DNA from: Candidatus Eiseniibacteriota bacterium
GTDB taxonomy: Bacteria > ARS69
Assembly: GCA_052390515.1 (NCBI GenBank)
Contig: JBQTGV010000005.1
Location: forward strand, 34,802 to 98,801
Reading direction: 5' to 3'
Length of the DNA: 64,000 bases
Positions within the stretch are counted from its first letter, which is position 1. Each line of letters begins with the position of its first letter. Both the position numbers and the translations under genes were made by a program. Shown in pieces: positions 9,744 to 64,000 of the stretch. The notes beneath the pieces were generated by a model, which did no database searches, was not told the DNA's origin, and worked only from the letters and a program-made list of their open reading frames with translations.

Positions 9744-9881
9744 CGCCGGTCGTGTCCTCCCGAATCAGGCCGCCAATCTGACGCCGGCCCCTTTACCCGA
9801 CGGAGCCCGCCGGGCGATAATCGAACGGCTCATCGTTCGTCGGAATCCTCGGGTTCTTCAACCGCAGTCCTGGGAGGTCTC

Positions 9882-11192: not shown

Positions 11193-11316
11193 CCGACCAT
11201 CCCGGAAAGCGCGGCCGGTTCTACCTCGCTCGATCTCGCTCGCCGTCCATGGCTCCCGGCGCGGCGGCGACGACGCGGGGCAGAACTGGCTGCGCTTCCG
11301 GGATCCCGCCGGCCCT

Positions 11317-48012: not shown

Positions 48013-48014
48013 AC

Positions 48015-49353: not shown

Positions 49354-49558
49354 TCGGAACCCTCCCAATAGACGCGGGGCGATTCGGCTTCCTCCTCTAT
49401 CGGCCGGAGCGGGCTTGCTCCGAAGTGCGTCGCAGCGTGTTCGCATTTTGCCCACCGCACCCTCCGTCGTGCACATCGCGCCGCGGCGCGAGCGTCAGGA
49501 ACGGCAAAGCCAGCCAACGACCCGCGAACGGTGGCGCGAGCTGCCAGCGTTCCGCCCG

Positions 49559-49574
49559 CGGCCCGGAGGTTGCA
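49559..49574 (+). promoter_or_regulatory. Sigma54-like promoter ahead of the large envelope operon
   Basis: CGGCCCGGAGGTTGCA, GG-N10-GC with TTGCA -12 element. Confidence 0.45.
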
Positions 49575-49653
49575 TTCCCTCCGTTACCCGCCGCCCGCGG
49601 ACGGTTGGTCCCTGGCGGCTTTGTGCAGCTTTCGAACCCGGAGTGGGCGCGAC

Positions 49654-50088
49654 GTGGCCACGAATCGCCGTGGGCGACGCCTGGGGGGAGTGCTGGCATG
49701 CTGGGTCATCGCCGCAGGCTGCGAGGGGCCGGCGGGTCCGACGCCTCCTCCCGGAGGCGGGCAGGACTTCGTGCTCGACTTCGCCCGGTTCCAGAGCGAC
49801 GTGCTGCCGGTGCTCGCGCAGTACAGCTGCAACACGGCGAGCTGTCACGGCGGCGGGATCCGCGGGACCTTCGAGCTCTCTCCCGCGGAAGCACCGGACG
49901 CGTCGTTCGACTTCGCCCAGGCCGAGCTGCAGGTCGACCCGTACGACCTGACCGCGAGCCCGCTGCTCGTCGAGCCGCTCTCGGAGGCGGCCGGCGGTAC
50001 GGCACACGCGTGGAAGCCGTTCGACTCGACCACGCATCCGGGATACGTCGCCATCCGCGACTGGATCCTCGCCGGAGAGTTCCAGTGA
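49654..50088 (+). CDS. Small lipoprotein with atypical CX4CH cytochrome c-like domain
   Basis: Lipobox IAAGC; FQSDVLPVL..CNTASCHGG..SPLLVEP..GGTAH..YVAIRDWI. Confidence 0.75.
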   Translation: MATNRRGRRLGGVLACWVIAAGCEGPAGPTPPPGGGQDFVLDFARFQSDVLPVLAQYSCNTASCHGGGIRGTFELSPAEAPDASFDFAQAELQVDPYDLTASPLLVEPLSEAAGGTAHAWKPFDSTTHPGYVAIRDWILAGEFQ

Positions 50089-50693
50089 GCGCCCGGGTCG
50101 CGGCCGTCGCCGCCACGTGTGCGGCGCTCTGGGCCTCGCCCGCCGCCGCCGAGGACGATCGCAGCGCGATCTTCCACGGCCGCGAGTATCTCGTGCCCGA
50201 GCTGGCCGAGAACGGATTCGCCGTCGAGCCCGGACCGCGTCCGTACCTGCACCGCTTCGCGTTCAGCCCCGCGTTCGGGCGTCTGGGGGACGAGAAGCTC
50301 TACACCATGCGCGTGGCCTACAACCCGAACCGCTGGCTGGGGTGGGAGGCGGGAGTGGCGCACAACCCCGGGCAGTCCGTGCACGCGCTGCTGCACACGC
50401 TGAGCGCCGTGGTGCGGTGGCCGCTGCCGGGACGGTTCCAGCCGTACGGCACGCTCGGCTACGGGATGATCCTGGTGTTCCCCGGCGAGGCGCTCAACGC
50501 CGACCCGGTCACCGAGAACGCGCTCAGCGCCGGCGGAGGTCTCGAGCTGTACGTGCGCAACGATCTCGCCGTGCGTGTCGAAGCCCGTCGCCTGGTGGTG
50601 CCAGGAACCGATCCGGTCTCCGGCGACACCGCGATGTACGGCTACCGCGAGATCACCGCCGGATTTTCGTTCTACCGCGGGCTCGGCCGATGA
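50085..50693 (+). CDS. Small outer-membrane beta-barrel (OmpA/OmpW-like fold)
   Basis: Signal peptide (SPAAA), FQPYGTLGYG, GGGLELY..LAVRVEAR, EITAGFSFY. GTGA overlap. Confidence 0.78.
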   Translation: MSARVAAVAATCAALWASPAAAEDDRSAIFHGREYLVPELAENGFAVEPGPRPYLHRFAFSPAFGRLGDEKLYTMRVAYNPNRWLGWEAGVAHNPGQSVHALLHTLSAVVRWPLPGRFQPYGTLGYGMILVFPGEALNADPVTENALSAGGGLELYVRNDLAVRVEARRLVVPGTDPVSGDTAMYGYREITAGFSFYRGLGR

Positions 50694-50725
50694 AGCCCGC
50701 AGCGCCCACCCCCGAGGAGTCGTTC

Positions 50726-52744
50726 ATGAGACGCGCCGAGTCCTTGCGCATGCTGCCGGTGGCGATCGTCACCGCCGTCGTTTCGCTCCCGGCCTGCCGG
50801 GACAGCGCCCCCGACGATCTCATCACGTCGGAGGACACCACGGAGGCGCTCGTCTTCGTGAAAACCTCCGTCGAGGAGTCCCTGAACCGGAGCTGGGGCG
50901 ACGGCAACCTGTACAAGCTCTCGCCGATCGCGCCGGACGGCATCGTCACGCCGCTGACCGCCTTCACCGACGCGGGCGTGGCCGATCCGTGCGTCTCGTT
51001 CGACGGCGAGAAGATCCTGTTCTCCATGCGCGCTCCGGGCGAGAACGACCGCAACATCTGGGAGATCGGGGCGGACGGCACCGCTCTGCGGCGGGTCACC
51101 AGCGGCGGTGGGCACGACTTCGACCCGCTGTACCTGCCGGACGGCCGCATCCTGTTCACCAGCTCCCGCGACAACGAGATGGACGAGTACAACCACTCGC
51201 CGGCGGAGCACCTGTACACCTGCGACGCCGACGGGGCGAACCTGGAGCGCGTCAGCTTCAACCAGAGCGACGACTTCGACCCGGCCCTCCTGCCCGACGG
51301 CCGGATCATCTACACGCGCTGGGACCACTTCGGGACGTTCAACCGCTTCCCGCTCTTCGCCACCAATCCGGACGGGACCGGCACGTTCCACCACTTCGGC
51401 CCGCACGAGCGGAACTTCTTCCACGCCCAGCCGCTGCCCGACGGCCGCATCGTGGCCATCGAGTCCACGATGATCAACGAGGACGCGGGCCCGCTCGCCC
51501 TGCTCAAGCCCGAGCAGGGACCGGCGGATCCGGCCGGCTCGAACTACGACCTGCACTGGGACGTGCTCACGGCTCAGGTGAACAACGACGGCGCCCCGTG
51601 GACGTACGGCGCGTTCAAGTATCCCTTCCCGCTCGGCGCGAACCGCTTCGTGGCGTCGTACTCGCTGCCCGCGGCCACCGATCCGGAAGTCGACTACGGT
51701 TTGTACAGCTTCACGCTCGTGCAGGAAGGCGCGGGGACGACGGCCGATCCGGCCACTCTCTCGGTGCGCGACCTCACGTTCCTCTACAACGATCCGGCGA
51801 CGAACGAGTACGACGCGCAGCTGCTCGCGCCGAAGGTCAAGCCGCCGGTCATCGCTTCGCAGGTCGTGCCCGGGGCCACCTCCGGCGTGTTCCTCGCGCA
51901 GGACGTGTTCAACCGCGGCACGAGCGACGGCCAGGAGCGCCCGCTGCGCGGCGTGCAGGTCATCGACGAGATCGCGGTGATCGCCGCGCGGCCGACCCGG
52001 CCCGGCGAGTCCGGTGACTTCTCGGCGAACGAGTTCGAGAAGCGCGCGCTGATCGGCTTCGCGCCGGTTTACCCGGACGGCTCGTTCAAGATCGAGGTGC
52101 CGGCCAACACGCCGATCAGTTTCGCGACGCTGGACGAGTACGACCGCGGCATCGTGACCAAGCGCACGCACATCTACGTGCGCCCCGGCGAGCAGTTCAC
52201 CCAGTGCGTCGGCTGTCACGAGGACCGCCAGGCCGGCGGACCGGCGGTGACCAACCCGAACCCGCTGGCGGCGGCTCAGCCGGCCACGAACCTGAACCTG
52301 CCCGAAAACCAGTGGACCATCATCAACTACGAGAACGACATCGGCCCGATCGTCCAGGCGAAGTGCGCGAGCTGCCACTTCACGGACTATTTCGAGACGA
52401 CGACCGTCGACTCGTCCGTGACTCCGCCGCTGGTGACCACGGTGCCGGACAGCACGCCCGCGCCGGCCAATCTCGACCTGTCGAGCATCCTGGAGCAGGC
52501 CGACGACATGATGGGCATGTTCCCGCGCGGGTACCTGAACCTCTCCGGCGAGCCCATGGAAGGCGTGGCCAACGTGGTCGACCCCGTGTTCCCGCGCCGG
52601 TCCGTGCTCGTCGACGCGGTGCTGGGTCTCGACTCGCGCGCGGCGCTCGGCCCGCATCCCGATCCGGCCGGACCGGACGCGCTGACCGACGCGGAGAAGC
52701 GCCTCTTCAACCTGTGGGTGCTGCTGGGCGCCCAGTACAAGTAG
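50726..52744 (+). CDS. Hydrazine-synthase-alpha-related beta-propeller lipoprotein with two c-type heme motifs
   Basis: Lipobox SLPAC, PD40-like blades (DPCVSFDGEKILFS, DFDPLYLPDGRILFTS, LPDGRIIYTRWD), HZS-alpha middle-like PDGSFKIEVPANTP..RPGE..CVGCHE, second CASCH. RBS GAGGAG; ATG at 50690 is an alternative start. Confidence 0.85.
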   Translation: MRRAESLRMLPVAIVTAVVSLPACRDSAPDDLITSEDTTEALVFVKTSVEESLNRSWGDGNLYKLSPIAPDGIVTPLTAFTDAGVADPCVSFDGEKILFSMRAPGENDRNIWEIGADGTALRRVTSGGGHDFDPLYLPDGRILFTSSRDNEMDEYNHSPAEHLYTCDADGANLERVSFNQSDDFDPALLPDGRIIYTRWDHFGTFNRFPLFATNPDGTGTFHHFGPHERNFFHAQPLPDGRIVAIESTMINEDAGPLALLKPEQGPADPAGSNYDLHWDVLTAQVNNDGAPWTYGAFKYPFPLGANRFVASYSLPAATDPEVDYGLYSFTLVQEGAGTTADPATLSVRDLTFLYNDPATNEYDAQLLAPKVKPPVIASQVVPGATSGVFLAQDVFNRGTSDGQERPLRGVQVIDEIAVIAARPTRPGESGDFSANEFEKRALIGFAPVYPDGSFKIEVPANTPISFATLDEYDRGIVTKRTHIYVRPGEQFTQCVGCHEDRQAGGPAVTNPNPLAAAQPATNLNLPENQWTIINYENDIGPIVQAKCASCHFTDYFETTTVDSSVTPPLVTTVPDSTPAPANLDLSSILEQADDMMGMFPRGYLNLSGEPMEGVANVVDPVFPRRSVLVDAVLGLDSRAALGPHPDPAGPDALTDAEKRLFNLWVLLGAQYK

Positions 52745-52752
52745 GAGGAACC

Positions 52753-53286
52753 ATGACGCGCGGACCCCGAGGCTCGCTCGCGGCGCTGCTGGCTGCCGCC
52801 TGGGCGGCCTCCGCCGCCCCGGTCGCGGCCGGCGAGATCGCCGCCTGGGGACCGGCCATCGCCAAGCACGAGTTCCGTGCGCTGGACGGAGGCACCGTCT
52901 CCTTCGCCGAGCTCTCCGGCGACGTCGTGGTCCTCAACTTCTGGGCGAGCTGGTGCAAGCCCTGCAAGCGCGAGCTCGTGGAGCTCGACGAGTGGAGCCG
53001 CACCGCCGGCTCCGGCGTCCGCATCATGGCGGTCTCCATCGACCGCGACCGGGCCCGTGCCGAGCGCTTCATCCGCTCGGAGAAGCTGGCGCTGCCGATC
53101 TATCTGGACGGGCCCGACGGCCTGGCCAAGGACCTCGACCTGCCTTCGTTGCCGTGCACCGTCGTGCTGGACTCGCGCGGCCGCGTCGTGCACGTCGACC
53201 GCGGCTCGGGGTCGATCGCGGAGATCGCCCGGGCGGTGAAGGAAGTGCTCGGCTCGCGGGCGACCGCCGCGGAGGTGTCGGGATGA
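52753..53286 (+). CDS. TlpA/ResA-like thiol-disulfide oxidoreductase, exported
   Basis: LNFWASWCKPC, LP cis-Pro loop, signal peptide, RBS AGGAGG. Confidence 0.92.
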   Translation: MTRGPRGSLAALLAAAWAASAAPVAAGEIAAWGPAIAKHEFRALDGGTVSFAELSGDVVVLNFWASWCKPCKRELVELDEWSRTAGSGVRIMAVSIDRDRARAERFIRSEKLALPIYLDGPDGLAKDLDLPSLPCTVVLDSRGRVVHVDRGSGSIAEIARAVKEVLGSRATAAEVSG

Positions 53287-53492
53287 AGCGCCTCGTGACG
53301 TTCGCCTTGCTGTGTCTCGCCGCGTCCGGTTGCGCGTCGGTCAAGCCGTGGCAGAAGGAGCATCTCGCCGATCCGATCATGTCCTTCGAGGACCACTCCC
53401 GCGAGGCGACCCGCGAGCTGCACTGGATCGAGGCCCGCGAGGGGTCCACCGGCGGCACCGGTGCCTCCGGAGGAGGCTGCGCGTGCAACTGA
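53283..53492 (+). CDS. DUF4266 family small lipoprotein
   Basis: ASGCASVKPWQKEHLADPIM...AREGSTGG...GGGCACN. Confidence 0.9.
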   Translation: MKRLVTFALLCLAASGCASVKPWQKEHLADPIMSFEDHSREATRELHWIEAREGSTGGTGASGGGCACN

Positions 53493-54625
53493 CCCCGCGT
53501 CTTCGGATCGCCGGCGCGCTGGCCGGTCTCGCTGCTTTCGCTCCGACCGCCTCCGCGGCCGAGATCGAGGAGCAGGAGGCGGGGCTGCGCTTCGAGATGT
53601 TCACCGACTCCGACGACGTGCACGTGTTCACGACCGCGACCGACTACGATCTCGATCTGGCGAACGGCGCGCACCTGCTCGTCGGACTGAGCCGTCAGGT
53701 CGTCGTCGTGCCGGCCATCACCGCGCCCGCCGGCACGCCGGAGGCGGTGGACGCGGTCTCCGGCGCGAGCCGTCCGATCTCCTCGTCCCAGGATCCCTTT
53801 TCGGAGTTCCGCAAGCAGCGCAACCAGCTCGACTCCTCGATGCGCTGGCGGAACGTCACGGCGGGGTACTACCTCTCGGACGAGAGCGACTACTTCGCGC
53901 AGCAGGTGCGGGGCGGGTACGAGCTGCTGCTCTTCGGCGAGAACGTGGAGCTGTCGCTGGCCGCGTCCTACGGCTGGGACGACATCGAGCCCGCGGCGGA
54001 CGACGACACAGCCACGCCCGGCGACCACCGCTCGACGCTCTACTGGAGCGCCGTCGCCACGCGCGTGCTGACTCCGACGACGATGCTCCAGGGCGGGATC
54101 GAGAACTCGCAGGTCGACGGCCTGCAGCACAACCCCTACCGGACCGTGTGGGTGGCCGGCGCGTACGCCGCCGAAAGACACCCCGACGACCGCTCGCGGT
54201 GGGACGCGTTCGTGAAGGTGAACCAGTACCTGCCGAACCGCTCCAGCGTGAACGCCACGTACAAGCACTACTTCGACGACTGGGGGATCGAGTCGCACAC
54301 GCTCGGAACGATGCTCCACCAATACGTCAACGAGTCCGTCGTCGTGCGCTACCGCTACCGCTTCTATCGCCAGTCGGCAGCCGACTTCTGGCGCGACGAC
54401 TACACCGAAGCCGGCGGCGTGGACGGGTTCCAGACCGCCGACTACCGCGTCGGGGAGTTCGACGCCCATCTCTTCGGGACCAAGCTCACCTGGGATGTCG
54501 GCCGCGGTCCCCTCGCCGTTCCAGCCCTCAATGGAATTCGCGTCCATCTGAAGTACGAGCGCTACTTCAACAGCAACAATTTCTCCGCGAACATCTTCGA
54601 GAGCGGACTCACGCTCTCGTTCTGA
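53483..54625 (+). CDS. DUF3570 family outer-membrane protein with flavinylation motif
   Basis: Starts MQLT overlapping the DUF4266 CACN end; DAVSGAS, SDESDY, NPYR, ERHPDDR, DDWGIESHT, RYRFYRQSAADF, C-terminal Phe. Confidence 0.87.
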   Translation: MQLTPRLRIAGALAGLAAFAPTASAAEIEEQEAGLRFEMFTDSDDVHVFTTATDYDLDLANGAHLLVGLSRQVVVVPAITAPAGTPEAVDAVSGASRPISSSQDPFSEFRKQRNQLDSSMRWRNVTAGYYLSDESDYFAQQVRGGYELLLFGENVELSLAASYGWDDIEPAADDDTATPGDHRSTLYWSAVATRVLTPTTMLQGGIENSQVDGLQHNPYRTVWVAGAYAAERHPDDRSRWDAFVKVNQYLPNRSSVNATYKHYFDDWGIESHTLGTMLHQYVNESVVVRYRYRFYRQSAADFWRDDYTEAGGVDGFQTADYRVGEFDAHLFGTKLTWDVGRGPLAVPALNGIRVHLKYERYFNSNNFSANIFESGLTLSF

Positions 54626-54645
54626 GGGCACGGAAGGAGGGAACC

Positions 54646-56283
54646 ATGCGGACATCTCTGCTGCTCGCCACGCTCTTGATGCTCTCCGGCACGGCCCACG
54701 GAAAGTCGTTCGTGGGTGCTCCAATTTTGGAGAGCGAAGGGCTCCAGTCGCTGAACCGCTCGGTGACCCGGGCGGAGCTCGCCCGCGATCTGTTCGGCGA
54801 GCCGTACGACACGGCGGTGCTCGGCAGCATCGACGTCTACGATCGCTTCCCGTACCTCGAGTCGCGCTGGTTCCAGATCGTGTCCGATCCGGCGTGGGAC
54901 CGTCTGCTGGCCGGTGAAGTCGGTGGCAGCCTCACGGCTCACGATGGCGCCGGTACGGCGTTCGGCCGGCTCGACGGGCCGCGCGGCGTCGCGGCGGACG
55001 CGTCGGGCAGGGTCTGGGTGGCGGACACCGACAACCACCGCGTGCTCGCCTTCGGCACCCGGAGCGAGTACGGCCGCATCGAACTGACTCCGCTCTTCGC
55101 CGTGAGCGGTCTGTCCCGTCCCTTCGACGTGGCCTTCTCCGACGGCGGGACGCCCTTCGTTACCGGCGACGACCGCATCTACGTGGCCGACACCGGCGCC
55201 AACCGCGTGGTCGCGTTCGACGTGACCGACTCGGGTGCCCGCGAGGTCGCTTCCTTCGGCGGGCTCGGCTCCGGGCGGGACCGCCTCGCCGGGCCGCTGG
55301 CCGTGGCGGTCGGCCGGTCCGACGGCGCCTCCACGCGCGACGTGTACGTCGCCGACTCGCACAGCGGACGCATCGTGCGGCTGCAGGATCAGGGCGACCG
55401 CTTCACGTGGACGAGCGAGACGGCGCAGGCCGGTGCCGTCACCTCGCTGGACACGGACCACTGGGGCGCGGTCTACGCCGCGTCGCCCTCGGCCGGATCG
55501 GTGACCAAGTACTCGACCGACCTGCTGGAAGTGGCCGCGCTGAACACCGGCGTCGAGCGTCCGCGCGCGTTCCACGTGCCGTTCGCCAACCGCACCGATC
55601 ACCGCAGCGGCCGAGTCGTCCGCGCCGGTCAGGGCTCGGGGCTGGTCGTCGAGGAGTGGACCGACGCTTCCGGCATGCAGCTCGTGCACCTCGGCGTGGA
55701 AGTGACGGGCCTCGCGGTGCGCACCCAGCACGGTGTCCAGGCCGACTTCGTCACGACCGATCACGCCGTGCTCTCCGCGGAAGTCGTGGAGGCCGCGACC
55801 GGTCGCACCGTGCTGACCCGCGACCTGGGCACGCACGGCGCCGGGCGGCAGTCGCTCGAGCTGGCCGACGTGGATCTGGCTTCCCTCGCCGGCGGCGATC
55901 ACCTGCTGCGCATCACCGCTTCGTCCGCGTACTCCGGCGTCGAGCCGGCCCGCGCCGAGGCGAGCTTCCCGTGGAACGGCGGCATCGCCGCGCTGCCGGG
56001 ATCGGCTTCCGTCGTCTCCATCGAGCCGAACCCCTTCGGAGGCAGCGCGTCCATCCGCTTCGCCGTGCCCGCAGGGGAGCGCCGGGATTTCGCGCTCCGC
56101 GTGTACGACGTGAGCGGCCGCCTGGTGCGCGTGGTCGACGAGGGCCAGGCCGTGCCCGGCGTGCACACGCGGACCTGGAACGGTGACGACGACTCTGGCA
56201 GGCCGGTCGCGGCCGGAGTGTACCTGGTCCGTCTCGTCGCCGGCACCGACACCTCCACCCGCAAGACGGTGCTGCTGCGATGA
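54646..56283 (+). CDS. Secreted NHL-repeat beta-propeller with C-terminal FlgD-Ig-like domain
   Basis: PRGVA..VWVADTDNHRV, IYVADTGANRV, VYVADSHSGRI; C-terminal EPNPFGGSASIRF..VYDVSGRLVR..WNGDD..GVYLVRL. Confidence 0.85.
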   Translation: MRTSLLLATLLMLSGTAHGKSFVGAPILESEGLQSLNRSVTRAELARDLFGEPYDTAVLGSIDVYDRFPYLESRWFQIVSDPAWDRLLAGEVGGSLTAHDGAGTAFGRLDGPRGVAADASGRVWVADTDNHRVLAFGTRSEYGRIELTPLFAVSGLSRPFDVAFSDGGTPFVTGDDRIYVADTGANRVVAFDVTDSGAREVASFGGLGSGRDRLAGPLAVAVGRSDGASTRDVYVADSHSGRIVRLQDQGDRFTWTSETAQAGAVTSLDTDHWGAVYAASPSAGSVTKYSTDLLEVAALNTGVERPRAFHVPFANRTDHRSGRVVRAGQGSGLVVEEWTDASGMQLVHLGVEVTGLAVRTQHGVQADFVTTDHAVLSAEVVEAATGRTVLTRDLGTHGAGRQSLELADVDLASLAGGDHLLRITASSAYSGVEPARAEASFPWNGGIAALPGSASVVSIEPNPFGGSASIRFAVPAGERRDFALRVYDVSGRLVRVVDEGQAVPGVHTRTWNGDDDSGRPVAAGVYLVRLVAGTDTSTRKTVLLR

Positions 56284-56888
56284 TCCGCCGCGGTCTCGCC
56301 TCCGCTTCGCTCGCGCTCGTGGCGCTCTCCGGATGTCTCGGAGAGCCGCCCATCGAGGAGACGTGGACGCGGCTCGAGATCCTCGACGCCAGCCCCACGG
56401 ATGCGGCGGCGTTCGCCGTCGGCTCGGCGACGACCGCGGTCACGATGCGCGCGCGCGTCACCTACCGCGAGATCCTCACCGGGTTCCTCGTCGCGGAGCT
56501 GCGCGCGGGGAGCGGGATCACCACCGCCGAGACCGCGCTGGACGCGGACGATCCGCTCGCCGTGGCCCGCGAGGTCGACCAGATCCTGGGGTCTTCCACG
56601 GCGATCGGCACGGAAGCGATCCCGGTCACCGGGTGGGACAGTCTGGTCCAGGAGCTCACCATCACGTTCGACGCGGGCACGCCGACGCCGACGGCGATGG
56701 ACAGCTCGGTGGCCGGCGCCGGCTCGAATCCGGTGACGTCCACCGGTCTCTTCCTCCTCCTGTACTTCTCCGACGACGTGCAGGAAGTGGAGCTCCAATC
56801 CGGCGAGGAGATCGAGATCGTGACGCCGGTGCTTTCCGATCAGCGCGACATCCTCTCCACCGGAATCGAGATCGTCCCGGCGTCCTAG
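56280..56888 (+). CDS. Hypothetical lipoprotein
   Basis: Lipobox ALSGC, ATGA overlap. Confidence 0.8.
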   Translation: MIRRGLASASLALVALSGCLGEPPIEETWTRLEILDASPTDAAAFAVGSATTAVTMRARVTYREILTGFLVAELRAGSGITTAETALDADDPLAVAREVDQILGSSTAIGTEAIPVTGWDSLVQELTITFDAGTPTPTAMDSSVAGAGSNPVTSTGLFLLLYFSDDVQEVELQSGEEIEIVTPVLSDQRDILSTGIEIVPAS

Positions 56889-56897
56889 GAGCGAACG

Positions 56898-57533
56898 ATG
56901 CGAACGACCCCCAGCATCCTGACCGCGTTCGCCGTCCTCGGCGCGACGGCCGCCTCCGCACAGACCTCCGTGCACGTCGGCCCGTTCGCTGGGACCATCG
57001 CCCTGGACAGCCACTTGGCCGACTACCGCTGGGACACGCGGGCGCGTGCGGTGTGGGGCGCCGCGGCGCGCGCCGAGGGCGGACCCTTCGGCGGCGGCCT
57101 GCGCGTCTGGCGCGCCTCCACACGGCAGTCGACCGGCATCCCCGGCGAGGACGTCGCCCCGGAAGTGAAGCTCACTGCCACGGAGGTTCTGGGCGAAGCG
57201 CGTCTCGTGCGCCTGGCCGGGTTCCGCCTGCTCGGCACGGGCTCCGTGGGGCGCCTGCACCTCGGCTACTCGCCGGACCGCCTCGTCCTGGACGACGGCG
57301 CCGGTGGCTCCATCGAGGTGGCGTTCGATCCGATCACGGAATGGACCGGCGGACTCGGTCTCGGTCTTCGCCGAACCGTCCCGTTCGGCTTGGAGGCCTC
57401 GATCGCCGTCGAGCACGGCTGGTTCCGTCTCGACACGGCGCACCGCGCCGGCTCCGAGATCGTGGAAGACCGCGAGACGTTCGGCAGCTGGACGGGCCGC
57501 GTGGAGCTCACGCACCGCATCCTGAGAATCTGA
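56898..57533 (+). CDS. Putative small outer-membrane beta-barrel
   Basis: Signal peptide (AASA-Q), amphipathic strands, RBS AGGAG. Confidence 0.7.
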   Translation: MRTTPSILTAFAVLGATAASAQTSVHVGPFAGTIALDSHLADYRWDTRARAVWGAAARAEGGPFGGGLRVWRASTRQSTGIPGEDVAPEVKLTATEVLGEARLVRLAGFRLLGTGSVGRLHLGYSPDRLVLDDGAGGSIEVAFDPITEWTGGLGLGLRRTVPFGLEASIAVEHGWFRLDTAHRAGSEIVEDRETFGSWTGRVELTHRILRI

Positions 57534-57544
57534 GGAGCACGATC

Positions 57545-58450
57545 ATGCACGCTCTCGATCCCCACCGTCTCGCGAAGGCCACGATCCTCCTCCTGGCGAG
57601 CGCCGCCGCCGCGTTCTCCGAGGAAGACGGCGCGGCGCGCACGTCCGACGTACCCGACGCACCGCCCGTGGTCGATGCGCCCGCCGCGCCCGCGCCCTCC
57701 GCCGAGAGTCGGATGAACCAGCCCTGGATGATCACCGACCGCATGGTCCGCCTGAACCGCGCCGACGTGAACGTGGTGCGGACCGGCCCCGGCGAGAGCT
57801 TCGCCGTCGCGCGGCTCGTTCCCGAAGGCGCCTCCTTCCTGGTGCTGGCCAAGAAGGACGAGTGGTACAACGTGCGCCTCTCCGAGTCGGAGACGGCCTG
57901 GGTGCACGAGTCGCTGTGCGAGGAGTACTCGGACCTCTCCGGCCTCGAGTTCCGTCCCAACCCGCGCCTGTTCTCCCGCGTCGGCAGCTTCACCCTGACC
58001 GCGTACACCGGCGGGTACTCGTTCGACCGCAAGTCCAACTCGCTGACGCTCGGCGGGCGCTGCGGCTATCACGTCTTCGACTACATCGAAGTGGAGGGCG
58101 GCGCAGGCTGGACGCACGTGAGCCGCCCCGCGGAGATCGTGGAGACGCTCTTCGGTCTCAGTCTCGAGGAAGAGCAGTTCCACATGCTCTTCTACGAGAT
58201 GAACGCGAACCTCAACATTCTGCCCGGTCGTCAGCTCGTTCCCTACGTCACCGCCGGCGTCGGCTCCACGATCCTGGAGGGCGCCAGCGAGGGCACGTTC
58301 AACTACGGCGGCGGCATCCACTTCTTCATCAGGAAGCAGACTGCCATCCGCTGGGAGTTCCGCACGTACCGGTTCGACTCCGGCGCGGACGAGGCGCGCC
58401 GGACCAACAACAACTACGCGTTCACCGTGGGCACGACGCTGCTGCGATGA
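57545..58450 (+). CDS. SH3b domain plus outer-membrane beta-barrel protein
   Basis: NVVRTGPGESF..KDEWYNV..AWVH (SH3b), then LVPYVTAGVGS..FNYGGG..IRWEFRTY..YAFTVG barrel strands. Confidence 0.83.
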   Translation: MHALDPHRLAKATILLLASAAAAFSEEDGAARTSDVPDAPPVVDAPAAPAPSAESRMNQPWMITDRMVRLNRADVNVVRTGPGESFAVARLVPEGASFLVLAKKDEWYNVRLSESETAWVHESLCEEYSDLSGLEFRPNPRLFSRVGSFTLTAYTGGYSFDRKSNSLTLGGRCGYHVFDYIEVEGGAGWTHVSRPAEIVETLFGLSLEEEQFHMLFYEMNANLNILPGRQLVPYVTAGVGSTILEGASEGTFNYGGGIHFFIRKQTAIRWEFRTYRFDSGADEARRTNNNYAFTVGTTLLR

Positions 58451-58464
58451 AGGAGGGCCGCGAG

Positions 58465-59016
58465 ATGATTCGAGGGCGATTCGCGATGGCGGTGGTGGCC
58501 GTGCTGGCCGGCGCGACCGCGGCGGGGGCGGACGATCCGATCCCGCGCACCGCGCGGGACGGCGAAGGGCTGGCCCGCGACGCCGCGGTCGTGTGGGCGG
58601 ACGACGCGCGCCTGGTGTACGTGGAGAACGATGAACCCCTGGCCGAGCTCGGCACCGCCGAGCGCTGGGGGTACCTCTTCTATTCGCCCTCGCGGGACGC
58701 CGCGCGCGCGTACTCGGTGCGGGACGGGAAGATCCGCACCGCCACCGATCTCGGCTTCGACTTCGAGGCACCGCCGCTCCCGACGGAGTGGATCGACAGC
58801 GCGGCCGCGCTCTCCGTCGCGGAGGAGAAGAGCCGCGAGTTCCGCGAGAAGCACGGCGGCCGGTTGCGCGCGATGTTCCTGGTTCGCGGCCTGCTCTATC
58901 CCGAGAACCCCGACGTGCCCACGTGGGCCGTCGTGTACGACTCCTCGACGACGTCCGGACTGTGGGTCGTCGTCGACGCTCGCTCCGGAGAGGTGGTGCG
59001 CACATGGAGAGGATGA
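58465..59016 (+). CDS. Exported hypothetical protein (PepSY-like)
   Basis: Signal peptide, WIDSAAAL, WAVVY..VVVDARSGEVV; RBS AGGAGGG. Confidence 0.75.
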   Translation: MIRGRFAMAVVAVLAGATAAGADDPIPRTARDGEGLARDAAVVWADDARLVYVENDEPLAELGTAERWGYLFYSPSRDAARAYSVRDGKIRTATDLGFDFEAPPLPTEWIDSAAALSVAEEKSREFREKHGGRLRAMFLVRGLLYPENPDVPTWAVVYDSSTTSGLWVVVDARSGEVVRTWRG

Positions 59017-59843
59017 CCCGGTGGGGAGTCACGACAGGGCTCGCCGGCTTTGCCGCGCTGGCGGCGCTGGCCGCCGCGGCGGATGAGAACGTGCCGGTGG
59101 GCGCGAACGCCCCGGCGCCGCTGCCGCCTGCCGGCGAGGCGTACGAAGTGGAGCACGTCGAGGCGGACGAGCCGAAGCATCCGACGCTCCGCTTCCTCGG
59201 CGAGAACCGGGACTTCTTCCGCGCGCGCTTGGACGAGCTGCGCCTCCTGCTCCGCGAGGGCTGGGACGGACAGGGCGAAGACCTGGATCCGCGCTGGCTC
59301 GCGTGGCGCGAGATGCTGGACGAGATCAACGCCGCGGGAGACTCCGCCGCGGTCTCCGACGAATGGATCCGCCGCCGCGAGCTCCTCGACAGCGTCGGCG
59401 AGCTCGTCGAGCTCGAGCTGGAGATGGACGAGATGGAGGAGCTGCTGGCCGATCAGGGAGACCGCCTCACGCGGCTGGAGGAGGACTTCGTCGGCCGCCA
59501 GCAGACCGCGCTCGTCGTGCTGGTCCGGGGAGCCGCGTCGCGCGGGACGCCGGAGACGGTGATCCTCAGCGAGGTGGACGGCCCGGCGCACCGCATCTCG
59601 CTCTCCGAGCGGGTTCGCGGATCCCTCGAACGGGGCGGCTCGGCGGAGCTGTTCCACAGGCTGGTGGAGCCGCGGGAGCACCACTGGGAGGTGTCCTTCG
59701 AGGGCGAGGGCTGGAGCGACCTGCACGTTCCGCTGGACCTCGATCCCGAACGCGACCGCATGACGTTCCTGGAAATCGATCTCTCGCAGCTCGAGCCGAT
59801 CGACGGAGAAGCCCGACCAGCGTCGCGATGGTGGGTGAGGTGA
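59013..59843 (+). CDS. Exported coiled-coil plus beta-sandwich hypothetical protein
   Basis: Signal peptide, acidic coiled coil, RLEEDF..TALVVLV..SLERGG..ELF..H..EVSFEG; ATGA overlap. Confidence 0.78.
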   Translation: MTRWGVTTGLAGFAALAALAAAADENVPVGANAPAPLPPAGEAYEVEHVEADEPKHPTLRFLGENRDFFRARLDELRLLLREGWDGQGEDLDPRWLAWREMLDEINAAGDSAAVSDEWIRRRELLDSVGELVELELEMDEMEELLADQGDRLTRLEEDFVGRQQTALVVLVRGAASRGTPETVILSEVDGPAHRISLSERVRGSLERGGSAELFHRLVEPREHHWEVSFEGEGWSDLHVPLDLDPERDRMTFLEIDLSQLEPIDGEARPASRWWVR

Positions 59844-59846
59844 CGC

Positions 59847-62800
59847 GTGATCGCCCCCATCGTCGTGATACTGGCTGCGGCCTCTGCGCCGCTTGCGCCC
59901 GGGACCGGGGATTCGTGGAACGATCTCTGCCTTCGGCGCGCCGTCGCCTTGTGGTGGCTCGGGGAGCCGGAGCGCGCTCTCTCGGTGCTGTCCGAGCGCG
60001 ACCCTGCTCTCCCGGAGTCGGACGCCGCGCGTGCCGAGCTGGTACGCGCCTTCGCCCTGTACGCCCGCGGCGAGCGCTCGCCCTTCGGTGACGCTGCCGG
60101 CGCGCTCGGTGACACGGACACCGGCGACGGCGTCGACGCGCTGCTGCTGGCCACCGGAGACATGTCCGACTCCGACGTGTTCCGCAACGCGCTCGTCGCC
60201 CGCGCCGCGCTGACGCCGGAGGAAGCGGACGCCGCGTGGGAGCGCGTGGCCCGCGCCGATCCGGAGAGCGCGCCGGAGCGCACGCTCGTCGCCGCGGCCC
60301 GTGCGCGCCTGGCGGCGCGAGCCATCGCCTCGGGCGCCGATCCCGCGGAGTGGCTGAAGAGCGAAGAGGGCGACGCCGGCACCGGTCTCTCCCACGTCGA
60401 TCACCTGAGGGGCCGTGCGGCGCTGGAAGCAGGCGATGACGCCGCCGCGACCGCCATCCTCGGTGCCCTGCTGGCCGAAGGTCCCGGCTATCCGCGCGCC
60501 GACGACGTCCGCCGCGAGCTGGCCACCGCGGCGCTCCGCCAGGGACGGTGGGACGAAGGCTACGCGCTGCTCACCGAGGCCGAGCGGGGTCGCGCGGCGG
60601 AGCGTGCCGCGCTCGACTCGCTGGCCGCGCGTGCCGCCGCCGGGGAGGACGCGAGGCTGTGGGCCGCCTGGAACGCGGCCGGCGACGGACCCGGGACGCT
60701 TCTCCTCGACCCCTCGCGAATCGACGGCGCCATGTCCGCCGCCGCGGAGCGGCTGCTCGACCTTCGCGGTCGTGCCGAGCGGGTCGCGCCGGCGATCACG
60801 GCAGCGGACCTCGGGATCTCCCCGGGAACGCCCGGTCTTCCCGCGTCGCTGCGCGCGCCCGACGCCGGCGAACGCGCGCGCGTGGCCACCGCGGCCGACT
60901 CCACCGCCGCCGCCCGCCGCGAGGCCGCGGATGCGCAGCGCCGGCTCGAGGACGAGCGCCTCTCCGCCGCGCGCGAGGGGATCTACCTCGAAGGCGGCCT
61001 GACGAAGGCGGCCGCCGAGTTGCGAGCCGCCGAGGAAGTCGCGGCCCGCGCCGAGGCGTTGCTCGCCCGCGTCGACGAGATCGTGGCGCAGCTGGCCGGC
61101 GCCCGCGACGCCGAGGTTCGGCGCATCGCCGAGCGCACCGCGCGGTTCACCGAGGATGCACGACGAAACCTGATCGTGGCGCGCGCGCTGCTCCACTTCC
61201 GCGTCAACGGACCGTCGCGGAAGGAGACTCTGCCGCCCGGGATTCCCTCGCCGGGCGAGTTGCTCGACCTCGAGGTGCAGCTCGTCGCGGGGCTGGAGCG
61301 ATGGTTCGCGGCGTTCGCCGCCGCCGCGCCCGCACTGGTGACGAAGTCGCACGACGAGGTCTGGTACCCGCGCGCCACCGACGGCCCGAAGGCGCTCGCC
61401 GCGCTGGCCGCGCGTCGGACGGCGGAGGCGAAGCAGCTCGGCGGGGCGATCGCCGCGGCGCGGGATGCCGCCGAGGCGCCTTCACGCTTCGCTCCGTTCG
61501 AGCATTCCGTGGCGCTGGCGGCCGGCCGCGCGAGAGAGAGCGCCGCGCAGGAATCGGGGATCCGCCGGGAGATCGCCGCGCGGCGGATCGACGAGGCGCG
61601 CGCGCGGCTCGATGCCGAGGCCGAGGCCATCGCCTATCCACTGGCGGTGGCCGCCCACGAGCGCGGCGTGGGCGCCGGCGACACCGACGAGGGGCGGCAC
61701 CTGCGCGTCGAGGCGGCCGCGCGTTACTCCGAGTTCCTGGCGGCGTACCCGAGCGCCGCCGCTCGCAGCGAGGTGCGCTTCCGTCTGGCCGACGCGCAGC
61801 TCGCGTTGGCGAAGGACGGCTTCCGCGAGTCGGTCACCCGCTTCCTGGGAACCGCTCCGTCCGCCGACGACTGGAAGCGCCCGGAGCTGGCGCCCTTCGT
61901 CGATTACGAGCCGGCGCTCGAGCAGTACCTGGCCATCCTGGAGGAGGACCCGACGTGGGCGCACCGTGACGCGGCGATGTTCCACGCCGGAATGATCCTC
62001 TCCGACGAGTCCGACTCGCGCGGCCAGGCTCTCCTCGGCGAGCTCGTCGAGAGGCACCCGCAATCCGCGCACGCCGCCGAGGCCCACCTCCGGCTCGGCG
62101 ACGAGCTGTTCGACCAGGGCGAGTGGGCCTTGTGTCGCCCGCACTTCGAGCAGGCAGCCGCCGGGACCGACGCGGAGATCGCGGCCATCGCCCTGTACAA
62201 GTCCGGGTGGGCGGACTACAGCCTCGGACGGTTCGACGAGGCCGCGCGCACCTACGTGCGTCTGCTCGATCACTACGCGGCGAACCCCGACGCGGCGCGC
62301 ACCACCGACATGCGCGAGGAAGCCGCGGACCATCTCGTGCATTGCCTCGCGCGCGGGGGCGGAGCGTCGGCCTTCGCCCGCACGTTCGACGCGATCGGCC
62401 CGCGCCCGTGGGAGCAGTCCTCGCTGGTGAACCTCGGCGCGCTGCTCCGCGACGCGAGCCTGTTCGAGGAGGCCGCCTCCTGCGACTCCCTGTGGCTCGT
62501 GCGCTGGCCGCACGACGCCGAGGCCCTGGCCGCGGCGCGCCGTCTCGTGGAAACGCGGGAGCGCGCCGGCTGGGCCGACGCGGCCATCTCGGCGCGGCTG
62601 GAGCTCGCGCCGGACTTCCGCCGCGGATCCGGCTGGTCGGACGCGCAGACCGACTCGATCGCCGCGCTCGGCGACGAGTTCGCGCGGTCGGCGCTGCGCA
62701 CCGTCGCGCTGCACCACCACCACACCGCCCGCGAATCGGGAACCCCGGCCCGCTGGCGTGCCGCGCTGGAGGCCTACGCCGCGCTGCTCGACGGCTGGCC

Positions 62801-63998
62801 CGAGCACGCGGAAGCGGCGACGTTCCACTACTATTCCGGCGAAGCGGCCACCGCGCTCTCCGATCCGGCGCTCGCCGTGAAGCACTTCGAGATCGCCGCT
62901 GCCGCCGAGGGCGCGCCGTTCGCCGCGGACGCCGCATGGCAGGCAGTCGCCGCGCGGGACGCCTGGTACGAGTCCTCCGACCCGAAGGACGGGGGTCTCG
63001 GACGGGCGCTGGCCAAGGCGATCGACGAGTTCGCCGGCCGCTATCCCGGCGAACCGCGCCTTCCCGACCTGCGCTGGCGCCGCGCGACCGTCTCCCTCGC
63101 CCACGGCTGGAGGGACGAAGCGGTCACCGCGTTCGCTCGGTTCGCGGAGATGCACCCCGGCGATCCGCGCACGCTCACCGCCGTGAGGCTCCACGCGCAG
63201 ACGCTCTACGAGCTGGAGCGCTTCGACGAGGCTTCCACGGCGTACGACGCTGCCGCGACCTTCGCCCGTGCTTCGGGCGCCGACTCGCTCGCCGCGGAGC
63301 TCGAGCCGCTCGTTCCGCACTGCCGCTTCCTGCACGGCGAGCGCCTCTCCGGTGAGAAGGCCGCCGTCGTGTTCGAGGAGGTCGCGGTGCGGTGGCCGGG
63401 CTGGGAGCACGCCGACCGCGCTCTGTATCGCAGCGGCCTCGCGTGGGAGAGCAGCGGCCGCCCGTCCGACGCCGTACGCGCGTGGACGTCGCTCGTCGAG
63501 CGCCATCCGGCGAGCGAGTACGCGCGTGACGCCCTGCTGCGCATCGCCGAGACGTGGGAGAAGGACGACCGGCCGGCGCTGGCGGCGACCGCGTTCCGGC
63601 GCTTCTCGGAGACGTTCCCGGACGACCCGGACGCCGGCTCGGCGCTGCTGCGCGCCGCGGACTTGATGATCGCCGCGGGGGACGTGGCGCAGGGCGAGAC
63701 CATCCAGGACTCGTACCTCGCGCGCTGGCCCGGCGACGTGCAGGCCGCCTTCTCGATTCTCGAGCCCCGCGCCGGCCGCGAGCTCGCGGCCCGCAGCGCC
63801 CCCACCGGCGCCGGGACATCCGGACCCATCGTCGCCATTTTAGGCCGAAGGTCGCTGGAACGTCGAGCAAGCGACGGCCGGCGGCTCAGTTTCGCTGTTG
63901 GGTCGGACGCACCAGCACGTCGTGGACCTCGACATGCAAGGGCTGGACCAGAATCCACCGCACGGCTTCGGCCACGTCCCCCGCTTCCAGCATCTTGA
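59847..63998 (+). CDS. Very large exported TPR/coiled-coil protein (GltC/GltD-like by inference); last ~60 codons appear spurious
   Basis: BamD/YfiO-type TPRs (YPS..RFRLAD, HPQS..EAHLRLGD, LYKSGW, ALYRSG). Codon usage degrades after ~63800, where the frame overlaps a convergent gene. Confidence 0.8.
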   Translation: MIAPIVVILAAASAPLAPGTGDSWNDLCLRRAVALWWLGEPERALSVLSERDPALPESDAARAELVRAFALYARGERSPFGDAAGALGDTDTGDGVDALLLATGDMSDSDVFRNALVARAALTPEEADAAWERVARADPESAPERTLVAAARARLAARAIASGADPAEWLKSEEGDAGTGLSHVDHLRGRAALEAGDDAAATAILGALLAEGPGYPRADDVRRELATAALRQGRWDEGYALLTEAERGRAAERAALDSLAARAAAGEDARLWAAWNAAGDGPGTLLLDPSRIDGAMSAAAERLLDLRGRAERVAPAITAADLGISPGTPGLPASLRAPDAGERARVATAADSTAAARREAADAQRRLEDERLSAAREGIYLEGGLTKAAAELRAAEEVAARAEALLARVDEIVAQLAGARDAEVRRIAERTARFTEDARRNLIVARALLHFRVNGPSRKETLPPGIPSPGELLDLEVQLVAGLERWFAAFAAAAPALVTKSHDEVWYPRATDGPKALAALAARRTAEAKQLGGAIAAARDAAEAPSRFAPFEHSVALAAGRARESAAQESGIRREIAARRIDEARARLDAEAEAIAYPLAVAAHERGVGAGDTDEGRHLRVEAAARYSEFLAAYPSAAARSEVRFRLADAQLALAKDGFRESVTRFLGTAPSADDWKRPELAPFVDYEPALEQYLAILEEDPTWAHRDAAMFHAGMILSDESDSRGQALLGELVERHPQSAHAAEAHLRLGDELFDQGEWALCRPHFEQAAAGTDAEIAAIALYKSGWADYSLGRFDEAARTYVRLLDHYAANPDAARTTDMREEAADHLVHCLARGGGASAFARTFDAIGPRPWEQSSLVNLGALLRDASLFEEAASCDSLWLVRWPHDAEALAAARRLVETRERAGWADAAISARLELAPDFRRGSGWSDAQTDSIAALGDEFARSALRTVALHHHHTARESGTPARWRAALEAYAALLDGWPEHAEAATFHYYSGEAATALSDPALAVKHFEIAAAAEGAPFAADAAWQAVAARDAWYESSDPKDGGLGRALAKAIDEFAGRYPGEPRLPDLRWRRATVSLAHGWRDEAVTAFARFAEMHPGDPRTLTAVRLHAQTLYELERFDEASTAYDAAATFARASGADSLAAELEPLVPHCRFLHGERLSGEKAAVVFEEVAVRWPGWEHADRALYRSGLAWESSGRPSDAVRAWTSLVERHPASEYARDALLRIAETWEKDDRPALAATAFRRFSETFPDDPDAGSALLRAADLMIAAGDVAQGETIQDSYLARWPGDVQAAFSILEPRAGRELAARSAPTGAGTSGPIVAILGRRSLERRASDGRRLSFAVGSDAPARRGPRHARAGPESTARLRPRPPLPAS

Positions 63999-64000
63999 GT
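63886..64000 (-). CDS. 3' end of an SDR oxidoreductase (YdfG/DHRS11-like), partial (not in ORF track)
   Basis: Hand translation LKMLEAGDVAEAVRWILVQPLHVEVHDVLVRPTQQRN-stop matches the SDR C-terminal pattern L..EDVAEAV..L.QP.HV.I.D..VRPT.Q. Confidence 0.8.
   Translation of the reverse strand, partial: LKMLEAGDVAEAVRWILVQPLHVEVHDVLVRPTQQRN

Follow-up and report, generated by a model that had tools for sequence, protein, structure and literature searches.

Three described systems lie closest to the gene cluster reported here. Luciano et al. (2011) defined a "core complex" consisting of GltD, GltE, GltG, and GltC together with AglR, AglQ, and AglS; its genes are also clustered in some Gammaproteobacteria, Geobacter, and Fibrobacter, where the function is unexplained (PMC3169522; this and the other papers cited are used in part). 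GltABCHK shields and unmasks CglB, an adhesin that contains a propeller (Cambillau and Mignot 2025, PMC11761067; PMC9946355). The second system is built around DUF3570, a protein flavinylated by ApbE at two [S/T]GA[S/T] motifs and found in clusters of ApbE, DUF3570, a thioredoxin-like protein, and a DUF4266 protein with a CXC end, sometimes with DsbD, again without an explained function (Meheust et al. 2021, PMC8238504). The third is hydrazine synthase; the parts of PMC12758564 used here treat only alpha homologues that adjoin beta-gamma homologues. Here we analyze 64,000 nucleotides (nt) of a Candidatus Eiseniibacteriota genome (GCA_052390515.1, contig JBQTGV010000005.1, forward-strand positions 34,802 to 98,801; "the window"), whose last quarter is taken up by 13 genes related to all three systems. 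We propose that these genes open a single sigma54-driven operon encoding a Glt-type envelope machine with a built-in ApbE-dependent redox module, that is, a motor-coupled cell-surface redox assembly. We put the probability of this reading at roughly 58%; its chemistry and its mechanical coupling are what we infer.

Extent and conservation of the operon

We refer to the genome as G000, to the window's contig as C5, and to the genes of the operon, in order, as g01 to g19. At 70% G+C, the window's raw lists of open reading frames (ORFs) are crowded. We called genes in three ways: from a third-position G+C frame plot, from a start-codon survey covering upstream bases and N termini, and with a caller trained on the long ORFs of G000; the gene calls and the profiles used below are the analysis's own. 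All three approaches agree on 13 consecutive + strand genes at 49654-63998, with overlaps of 4 to 10 nt or gaps of 3 to 32 nt at the junctions. This bears out the original prediction, made from the letters of the window, of 13 tightly spaced genes (at most ~32 nt apart). It had also seen a signal peptide or lipobox on nearly all of them; one or the other is visible at all 13 N termini, with lipoboxes on g01, g03, g05, and g08. Pfam and NCBIfam agree with nearly all of the domains it named (HzsA-like di-heme protein, CxxC thioredoxin, CxC lipoprotein, DUF3570, NHL plus FlgD, SH3 plus barrel, and tetratricopeptide repeats [TPR]), and no profile identifies the whole set as a characterized complex. 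Two boundaries had to be moved. The start given as 49559 belongs to a promoter-like site, g01 itself beginning at 49654, and the cluster does not stop at 13 genes.

The last gene of the window, g13 (59847-63998, +), stops 2 nt from the end of C5, which is also the end of the window (64000), and is cut by it. In four related genomes, six further + strand genes follow directly 3′ of g13 without a gap; with Pfam, those of G004 read as a TPR protein, a small protein, a MotA_ExbB protein, two ExbD proteins, and a TonB_C protein. The G000 counterparts occupy one end of contig C136, where ~220 residues that represent the rest of the g13 C terminus come before them, and the G004 g13 orthologue aligns first to the end of C5 and then to the end of C136. 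The TPR protein, predicted at more than 1,300 residues, thereby reaches a full length of ~1,600 residues, in line with its orthologues (1,460 to 1,608 aa; 1,608 in G001 and 1,589 in G005). In the contigs of three public DNA runs, the last 150 nt of the window are uncovered and nothing bridges to C136, so the orthologue alignment is the sole basis of the C5-C136 join. The set on C136 comprises a TPR lipoprotein (g14), a small protein (g15), a TolQ/ExbB protein (g16), two TolR/ExbD proteins (g17 and g18), and a TonB-like protein with an AgmX/PglI (GltG-type) domain (g19). Judged from these alignments, the whole unit would be 19 genes, or 20 with the ApbE gene that is adjacent in most relatives.

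A sigma54-like site had been predicted in front of the cluster, and we found a sigma54-type -24/-12 element (CGGCCC-N5-TTGCA; 49559-49574, +) ~80 nt upstream of g01. Scored against TGGCAC-N5-TTGCW over 11 positions, with GG and GC fixed, it matches at 9. At the same threshold, the whole window holds 8 sigma54-type sites on both strands, and 40 of 61 related loci have one within 450 nt upstream of g01; in relatives with ApbE, the site lies between ApbE and g01. The region from 49000 to 64000 contains no terminator-like site (mean of 3.2 in shuffles), and we found no sigma70-like site on its + strand. A histidine kinase and a sigma54-dependent response regulator are encoded ~2.5 kb past g19 on the opposite strand of C136 (L020 3993-6870, +); this pair is a possible source of activators for the operon's sigma54 promoter.

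The window's phylum is represented by only 12 species genomes of one family. Orthologues of g03 with 69 to 77% identity occur in 8 of the 11 relatives, and a ninth relative, G005, has a copy with in-frame stops. At that locus (G005:C15, L016 ~9300-11900), in-frame TGA stops and shifts interrupt g03, g04 is truncated, and g05 to g19 are intact; the damage is either decay of the cytochrome or an assembly error. The 13 genes are colinear in all four family genomes first examined (G001, G004, G007, and G011), and in G008, G009, and G010 they are colinear as far as the contigs extend. The cluster is absent from G002. G003, a genome of 2.7 Mb, has only a canonical TlpA-DUF4266-DUF3570-ApbE module (L018, G003:C11 8812-12258, -), and NF033768, the AgmX/PglI domain model, matches none of its proteins.

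We then took a profile of six close g06 orthologues, from which two distant DUF3570 copies had been left out, and scanned one genome for each species. This yielded 80 loci at 41 to 59% identity. By the submitters' labels, which are the source of all phylum names used here for loci, 30 belong to Eisenbacteria/Eiseniibacteriota, 10 to Krumholzibacteri-, 4 to Latescibacter-, and 6 to Gemmatimonad- lineages; 5 carry the labels of other, unrelated phyla, which may be binning errors, and 25 have no label. When profiles of all genes were run against the six-frame ORFs of the 80 loci, 77 showed a single contiguous colinear run. Forty-five loci span g01 to g13, and 43 of them have all 13 genes in order; the other two are the G005-type locus, which is frameshifted, and a locus in which the g04 profile found no match. 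The gene order is conserved across several candidate phyla, at 31 to 70% protein identity and under at least four phylum labels. The downstream part follows as well: in all five genomes of other lineages that we inspected for it, g13, g14, g15, g16, and g19 lie downstream of the cluster, and the sole NF033768 match above the cut-off in each genome is directly behind it. The g17 and g18 profiles, built from two sequences, find ExbD genes in only one or two of these five, with a gap of ~1 kb at that place. Median identity outside the own lineage is highest for g03 (64%), 53% for g02, and lowest for g08 (37%). That g03 is so well conserved suggests that the system is there for the chemistry of this protein.

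The redox half

The lipoprotein g03 (50726-52744, +, or from 50690) combines, by Pfam, a PD40/TolB-like propeller and an HZS_alpha match with two CXXCH motifs, which are kept in 61 of 62 orthologues. It aligns with HzsA (5c2v_A) at an E value of 8e-16 in five colinear stretches that run through the propeller, middle, and C-terminal domains, with both CXXCH motifs aligned. HZS_alpha scores 62.3 bits, and the equivalog model scores 84 bits against a cut-off of 800, so the match is at the domain level. Unlike hydrazine synthase, the cluster offers no beta-gamma partner of the propeller plus CCP_MauG type: no CCP_MauG or HzsB/C-like match was found among the 19 proteins. Also in contrast to that enzyme, g03 is a lipoprotein, and its partners are TlpA, DUF4266, and DUF3570 proteins and an NHL propeller.

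Two other loci with HzsA-like genes were observed. A contig of G002, of the same phylum, carries at a different locus (G002:C244, L019 3-9575) a true HZS-like set of alpha and beta-gamma genes, consisting of an FG-GAP/ASPIC protein, an HzsA-like protein of 550 aa, a fused propeller plus CCP_MauG, a cytochrome c554-like protein, a propeller, and two periplasmic binding proteins; it matches the "clade III" arrangement in the part of PMC12758564 used here. A distant genome has two tandem pairs (G037:C38, L009 5330-17424, -), each a one-heme HzsA-like gene (674 to 676 aa) followed by an NHL plus fn3 gene (976 to 990 aa). These pairs come without a DUF3570 module, and the HzsA-like/NHL pairing thus recurs outside the cluster.

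Directly behind g03 lie the genes that the original prediction had linked to ApbE as a TlpA-DUF4266-DUF3570 module, a link that is indeed published (PMC8238504). The first, g04 (52753-53286, +), encodes an exported thiol:disulfide oxidoreductase of the TlpA/ResA type with the motif WxxWCxPC (CKPC). It matches AhpC-TSA, Redoxin (66.7 bits), and Thioredoxin_8, and not PF13899, the thioredoxin family named in PMC8238504; the ResA/TlpA models of NCBIfam score below their cut-offs. Its CxxC is present in 70 of 70 orthologues. The DUF4266 lipoprotein g05 (53283-53492, +; lipid-bearing Cys17; PF14086, 65.7 bits) ends in GGCACN, whose CxC (CAC) is kept in 75 of 75 orthologues. A TGAS sequence in g05 was considered as a flavinylation site and dropped, as it is not conserved.

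The outer membrane barrel g06 (53483-54625, +; PF12094, 140.5 bits) has a C-terminal Phe and belongs to a divergent DUF3570 subtype, which scores 120 to 157 bits against PF12094, compared with 280 to 400 bits for canonical members. A motif resembling the flavin mononucleotide (FMN) acceptor site is kept: DA[IV][ST]xASRPI is near-universal in the subtype, the window copy reads SGAS at residues 93 to 96, and a relaxed D..[ST].A[ST] is found at this column in 79 of 80 loci. The broader consensus of ApbE sites is Dxx(s/t)gA(T/S). Unlike the described proteins, which have two strict [S/T]GA[S/T] motifs, members of the subtype mostly have a single relaxed one (DAIT[T/S/G]AS). The adjacency of DUF3570, DUF4266 with its C-terminal CxC, and a thioredoxin-fold gene is as in the described flavinylation clusters; here, in contrast, there is no DsbD in the cluster, and the module is embedded in a 19-gene motor operon. 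Of the 50 loci with enough upstream DNA, 36 have ApbE as the immediate upstream neighbor of g01, on the same strand, and no genes further upstream of ApbE are conserved (at most 6 of 36 loci). The sole ApbE gene of G000 is on contig C124, beside NusG_II and Hpre_diP_synt_I genes, and the two DsbD_TM proteins of this genome are both encoded outside the cluster.

We modeled the mature g05 and g06 proteins as a complex. The model scored 0.64, against 0.02 for the best control; 116 of 157 solved complexes attain this mark, as do 2 of 215 mismatched pairs. Agreement between runs extends to at least 61% of the contacts, and the pLDDT (predicted local distance difference test) value of the partner is at least 63. 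In the model, g06 touches g05 through alternating residues along many strands, which corresponds to the barrel lumen. No solved structural relative of either protein was found by sequence. The model supports, but does not establish, that g05 binds inside the g06 barrel. Outer membrane assemblies with a plug in a barrel include LptD-LptE and the MtrA-MtrB porin-cytochrome conduit. The modeled pair would resemble them in placing a small lipoprotein in a barrel lumen at the outer membrane, near redox cofactors; it differs in having no sequence or solved-structure relation to them, and a thiol pair plus FMN would replace the deca-heme wire.

The genome has a second, more divergent DUF4266/DUF3570 pair (35.1 and 41.6 bits; G000:C103, L011 6324-8772, +). 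A BNR/sortilin-like propeller stands upstream of it in place of the TlpA and HzsA-like genes, and it is flanked by FG-GAP/FlgD_ig, DUF7453/FlgD_ig, and CHAT genes.

At the head of the operon, g01 (49654-50088, +) encodes a lipoprotein (Cys23) with CNTASCH, a possible c-type heme or metal site. The CX4CH spacing that had been predicted holds for the window copy; among relatives it is found in 23 of 60, the remainder having CX5CH, and the motif C-x4/5-CHGGG[IL]RG occurs in all 61 orthologues. No Pfam family matches it (0 of 24 orthologues), and its AlphaFold2 model has a pLDDT of 83. The next gene, g02 (50085-50693, +), encodes a small exported protein with a signal peptide, a candidate outer membrane beta-barrel by weak matches to OMP_b-brl (25 bits; cut-off, 28.7) and TIGR04565 (27.8 bits; cut-off, 60).

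The Glt-type half and putative surface proteins

The C-terminal part of g13 is YbgF/BamD-like (TIGR02795, tol_pal_ybgF, 96.4 bits; cut-off, 90.1), and TPR families match the protein. A profile of seven g13 orthologues detected the gene at the GltD position of G222 at 113 bits (E value of 2e-34, profile positions 614 to 1438) and the equivalent genes of G279 and G319 at 169 and 143 bits. As a control for specificity in the TPR-rich G000, the g13 profile matched only g13, with the next protein at 22.8 bits, and the g19 profile matched nothing else. G222 contains a true GltG (1,033 bits; cut-off, 650), and in its Glt locus the g13, g14, and g19 profiles match three consecutive genes, GltD, GltE, and GltG, at 113, 58, and 54 bits. 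The order is g13-g14-g16-(ExbD/gap)-g19 in G279, where the g16 profile scores 148 bits on the gene between the GltE-like and GltG-like genes, and g13-g14-g19-g16 in G319. By these profile matches and positions, the last seven genes appear to be homologues of the Glt core complex genes and to stand in a similar order. The resemblance to Agl-Glt that had been predicted from g13 and the barrels is thus stronger than claimed, with the motor and a GltG-type protein on C136.

Like the Agl-Glt/Nfs core, the operon has a giant TPR pillar, a TPR lipoprotein, a small protein, a TolQ-like and two TolR-like proteins, and a membrane protein with the AgmX/PglI domain, all in one block whose order agrees with that of two Glt-type loci. 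Several small outer membrane barrels and a lipoprotein stand just upstream, as with nfsA-B or gltA-B-K (compare PMC11761067). It differs in always having twelve further genes (among them those for the HzsA-like cytochrome, TlpA, DUF4266, DUF3570, the NHL protein, the CX4/5CH lipoprotein, a PepSY-like protein, and a coiled-coil protein), in usually having ApbE attached, and in its hosts, which are uncultured FCB-type candidate phyla. The membrane protein differs as well: g19 has no FHA domains and is 312 aa long, against 650 positions in the GltG model. None of g08 to g12 matches a TPR family in Pfam, and we identified no GltC equivalent, no GltC sequence or model being among those used. NF033759 was tried as a GltD model and turned out to be TraA.

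Several of these proteins also recall Tol-Pal and TonB-ExbB-ExbD, with which the operon shares a proton channel of the 5:2-type family (MotA_ExbB, 105.4 bits for g16), ExbD/TolR proteins (69.5 and 85.9 bits for g17 and g18), a TonB_C-like arm, and a YbgF-like TPR protein. It would be highly improbable, in our judgment, that the operon is a paralogue of the Tol-Pal system for envelope integrity and division, even though TolQ and TolR are the best NCBIfam matches of g16 to g18, g13 passes the tol_pal_ybgF cut-off, and g03 has a TolB-like PD40 propeller. The TolQ and TolR scores are below the cut-offs, as are all scores against equivalog models of these systems, and Pfam finds no Pal/OmpA-like lipoprotein among the 19 proteins. 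The genome also has two further TolQ/ExbB paralogues and, on C121, a full-length TolB-like gene that scores far better than g03 (318.8 versus 48.6 bits; cut-off, 343), which argues that the operon is not the cell's Tol-Pal.

The protein g19 has an N-terminal transmembrane segment and the C-terminal domain of AgmX/PglI (NF033768, 88.4 bits; cut-off, 40). The GltG model scores 65 bits on its C-terminal part only (cut-off, 650), and GltJ scores 47.7 bits by way of the shared C-terminal domain. With ExbB, ExbD, and TonB_C proteins at the end of the operon, g19 could instead gate g06 in a TonB-type energized uptake system, in which the flavin and heme proteins would reduce an extracellular metal such as Fe(III) before import. 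Flavinylation clusters are often tied to iron transporters, and 25 DUF3570 clusters include VIT1 (PMC8238504); a plug in the g06 barrel would also recall gated barrels. We consider such a system quite unlikely. The 19 proteins include no match to a TonB-dependent receptor, a periplasmic binding protein, an ABC transporter, or Feo, the g19 domain is of the GltG/AgmX type and not classical TonB (tonB_Cterm, 22.8 bits; cut-off, 27.1), and a GltD-like pillar of 1,600 aa is foreign to known uptake systems.

The motor itself varies among close relatives. The motor genes of G000 and G011 are alike (327 bits) and are far from those of G001, G004, G005, G007, and G010 (61 to 74 bits; regions compared, G000:C136, L020 10419-11973, and L002 3422-5086), and the g17 and g18 profiles find none of the divergent copies. 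It seems that one motor was exchanged for another inside the operon while its slot was kept.

Between the redox genes and the pillar lie g07 to g12. The exported NHL beta-propeller g07 (54646-56283, +) has a C-terminal FlgD_ig/Por_Secre_tail region recognized as a type A sorting domain of the T9SS (type IX secretion system) by TIGR04183 (29.5 and 33 bits; cut-off, 23). G000 has 145 matches to T9SS sorting domains, 143 of them above the cut-off, and a SprA_N match of 41.8 bits on a 2,105-aa frame, SprA being the T9SS component searched for. The 143 domains amount to a very large T9SS secretome for a genome of 4.3 Mb. The start of g08 overlaps the stop of g07 (ATGA). This gene (56280-56888, +) encodes a lipoprotein (Cys19) of no known family in Pfam (0 of 24 orthologues) or NCBIfam. 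The original prediction counted four outer membrane barrels. The assignment holds for g06 and for g10 (57545-58450, +), an exported protein with an SH3 domain (SH3_3, 27.2 bits) and a barrel of the OMP_myx_plus type (OMP_b-brl, 37.3 bits; TIGR04565, 62.7 bits against a cut-off of 60), and more weakly for g02. The exported protein g09 (56898-57533, +) is a possible small barrel: the window copy matches no family, and OMP_b-brl matches weakly in 2 of 24 orthologues. Likewise, the window copy of the exported g11 (58465-59016, +, or from 58447) matches no family, and 4 of 24 orthologues have a weak PepSY-like C-terminal domain (17.7 to 20.3 bits; cut-off, 24). The exported g12 (59013-59843, +, or from 59004) matches no family either (Pfam, 0 of 24 orthologues). 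Its AlphaFold2 model (pLDDT, 81) consists of a helix of ~68 residues (93 to 160) and a C-terminal beta-sandwich, without a significant PDB match (best Foldseek E value of 1.5e-3, to a generic beta-sandwich). Among 1.84 billion proteins, the g12 family has 195 representatives at an E value of 0.001 or lower, which marks the system as rare.

Three small barrels and a lipoprotein next to a secreted propeller resemble GltA/B/H/K holding CglB (PMC11761067; PMC9946355). Together with the relationship to the Glt core in sequence and gene order and with the sorting domain of g07, this would fit a gliding or adhesin transport machine, in which g07, delivered by T9SS, is an adhesin moved or unmasked by the motor and the redox proteins only mature or regulate it. 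We think this unlikely. The core complex alone is insufficient for motility and is present in nongliders (PMC3169522), and we detected no cytoplasmic proteins of the GltI or GltJ type in the cluster. In NCBIfam, g02, g08, g09, and g10 have no GltA/B/H/K match apart from the TIGR04565 domain model, and g08, g09, and g15 match no NCBIfam model at an E value of 1 or lower, in a library whose coverage of GltA/B/H/K/F is uncertain. The most conserved protein is the di-heme g03 and not the putative adhesin, and g07 of the window lacks any cysteine that a thiol system could target.

On the other side of the operon, the window encodes an FG-GAP/UnbV_ASPIC protein, a TPR protein of 541 aa, and two adjacent DinB-family proteins upstream (42990-46246, -, and 47500-48515, +). 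A divergent gene for a 261-aa protein (48568-49353) matches no family; the G004 gene at that position encodes a GH113 hydrolase.

Proposed mechanism and meaning

In the machine that we propose, a proton-driven inner membrane motor would act through the TonB-like arm g19 and the TPR pillar g13 on a platform in the outer membrane. The platform would be made of the three small barrels g02, g09, and g10, the lipoproteins g08, g01, and g03, the coiled-coil protein g12, and the PepSY-like g11, by analogy with GltABCHK, which shields and unmasks its adhesin. The redox module would form part of this platform, outside the cytoplasm. A DsbD/CcdA protein, encoded outside the operon, would supply reducing power to the TlpA-like g04, which would hand it on to the CxC lipoprotein g05, the presumed plug of the DUF3570 barrel g06; on this barrel, ApbE would have placed FMN. 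As acceptor or catalytic end we propose g03, the di-heme HzsA-like propeller lipoprotein, perhaps together with g01. T9SS would bring the NHL propeller g07 to the cell surface, where the platform would hold or move it, as GltABHK holds CglB.

Several observations weigh against this proposal. Two motifs of this DUF3570 subtype served to seed the 80 loci, which show that the subtype always travels with the cluster and not the converse. Only 9 of 78 g06 orthologues have the strict [S/T]GA[S/T] motif, which the window copy contains once, not twice. ApbE is not adjacent in the window, nor in the six loci of the own lineage that have enough upstream DNA. The top fold matches of g01 are c-type cytochromes, but they are not significant (Foldseek E value of ~3; VIA Z score of 4.3 to FoxE), and when g01 was considered as a relative of the C-terminal heme domain of g03 or of PSCyt1, hhalign aligned only the signal peptides; this candidate was rejected. 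On the Glt side, g14, a lipoprotein with the lipobox LGGC, scores 40.8 bits against the GltE model (NF033758; cut-off, 225), tied with PilW and PrsT, and the g14 profile reaches 57.9 bits on GltE, compared with a TPR background of 56.9 bits in G000. We treat g14 as a tentative GltE counterpart, by its gene position. NF033768 is above the cut-off in 87 of 401 diverse genomes and is by itself no marker of a Glt system; the Glt argument therefore rests on the GltD homology and the gene order.

The two halves also occur apart. In a broad sample of 401 genomes, DUF3570 is present in 29, and we examined ten regions around lower-scoring copies. Two contain the full cluster, one of them with ApbE; in six, the canonical module stands alone, with or without TlpA and ApbE, as it does in G003. 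A short form in G066 has only barrel, barrel, g03, g04, g05, g06, and g07, without a Glt-like half, the cluster of G219 is divergent and lacks the motor genes as well as g08 and g09, and the true Glt loci examined (G222, G279, and G319) have no redox module. The halves are thus separable, and these variants are the strongest argument for a different explanation, that two independent systems share an operon: an outer membrane redox/propeller module (ApbE and g01 to g07) and a Glt/Tol-like motor and scaffold (g08 to g19), which would be co-regulated and make no physical contact. We regard this as possible but not probable. The 13-gene order is kept across the boundary in nearly all spanning loci despite the sequence divergence, the stop of g07 overlaps the start of g08 at that very boundary, neither a terminator nor a sigma70-like promoter separates the halves on the + strand, and the small barrels g02 and g10 straddle both. 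We prefer the single motor-coupled assembly. The original reading, of one complex coupling a heme/thiol/flavin relay to a TPR and beta-barrel scaffold, is supported on points it had named as refuting: the gene set is co-conserved, no internal terminator was seen, and profiles revealed no characterized complex; the single physical complex and the electron relay are its proposed parts.

As far as the literature was searched, the combination of a Glt-type motor with a flavin/thiol/heme set in one operon appears to be undescribed. The parts of the published DUF3570/DUF4266 accounts used here, which do not extend to the neighbor table of PMC8238504 (supplementary file 1), make no mention of motor, TPR, or HzsA-like proteins, and a search for literature joining these phylum names with gliding or TonB, or with HZS_alpha, found nothing relevant. 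A bolder proposal, which we hold only tentatively and think rather doubtful, is that the operon represents a new class of envelope machine. In it, a Glt/Tol-type motor would mechanically gate or drive an outer membrane electron conduit, formed by an FMN-bearing DUF3570 barrel with a CxC plug and fed by periplasmic thiols, which would serve a surface di-heme enzyme of the HzsA type and a propeller delivered by T9SS. If this is true, the core complex ancestral to myxobacterial gliding originally served cell-surface redox chemistry, and the cell surface is where the orphan HzsA-like proteins of organisms other than anammox bacteria would act.

Three sets without an assigned function, the Glt core outside gliders, the ApbE/DUF3570/DUF4266/thioredoxin cluster, and the orphan relatives of HzsA, meet in one conserved operon. 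Each of them gains defined partners and can be tested in the context of the others. A DUF4266 plug in a DUF3570 barrel, as modeled, would be a concrete structural hypothesis for a widespread flavinylated outer membrane protein. Our findings extend Glt-type machines to lineages labeled Eisenbacteria, Krumholzibacteria, and Latescibacteria, whose cell biology is undocumented, and the operon points to a possible task of the machine from which the myxobacterial gliding motor descends.

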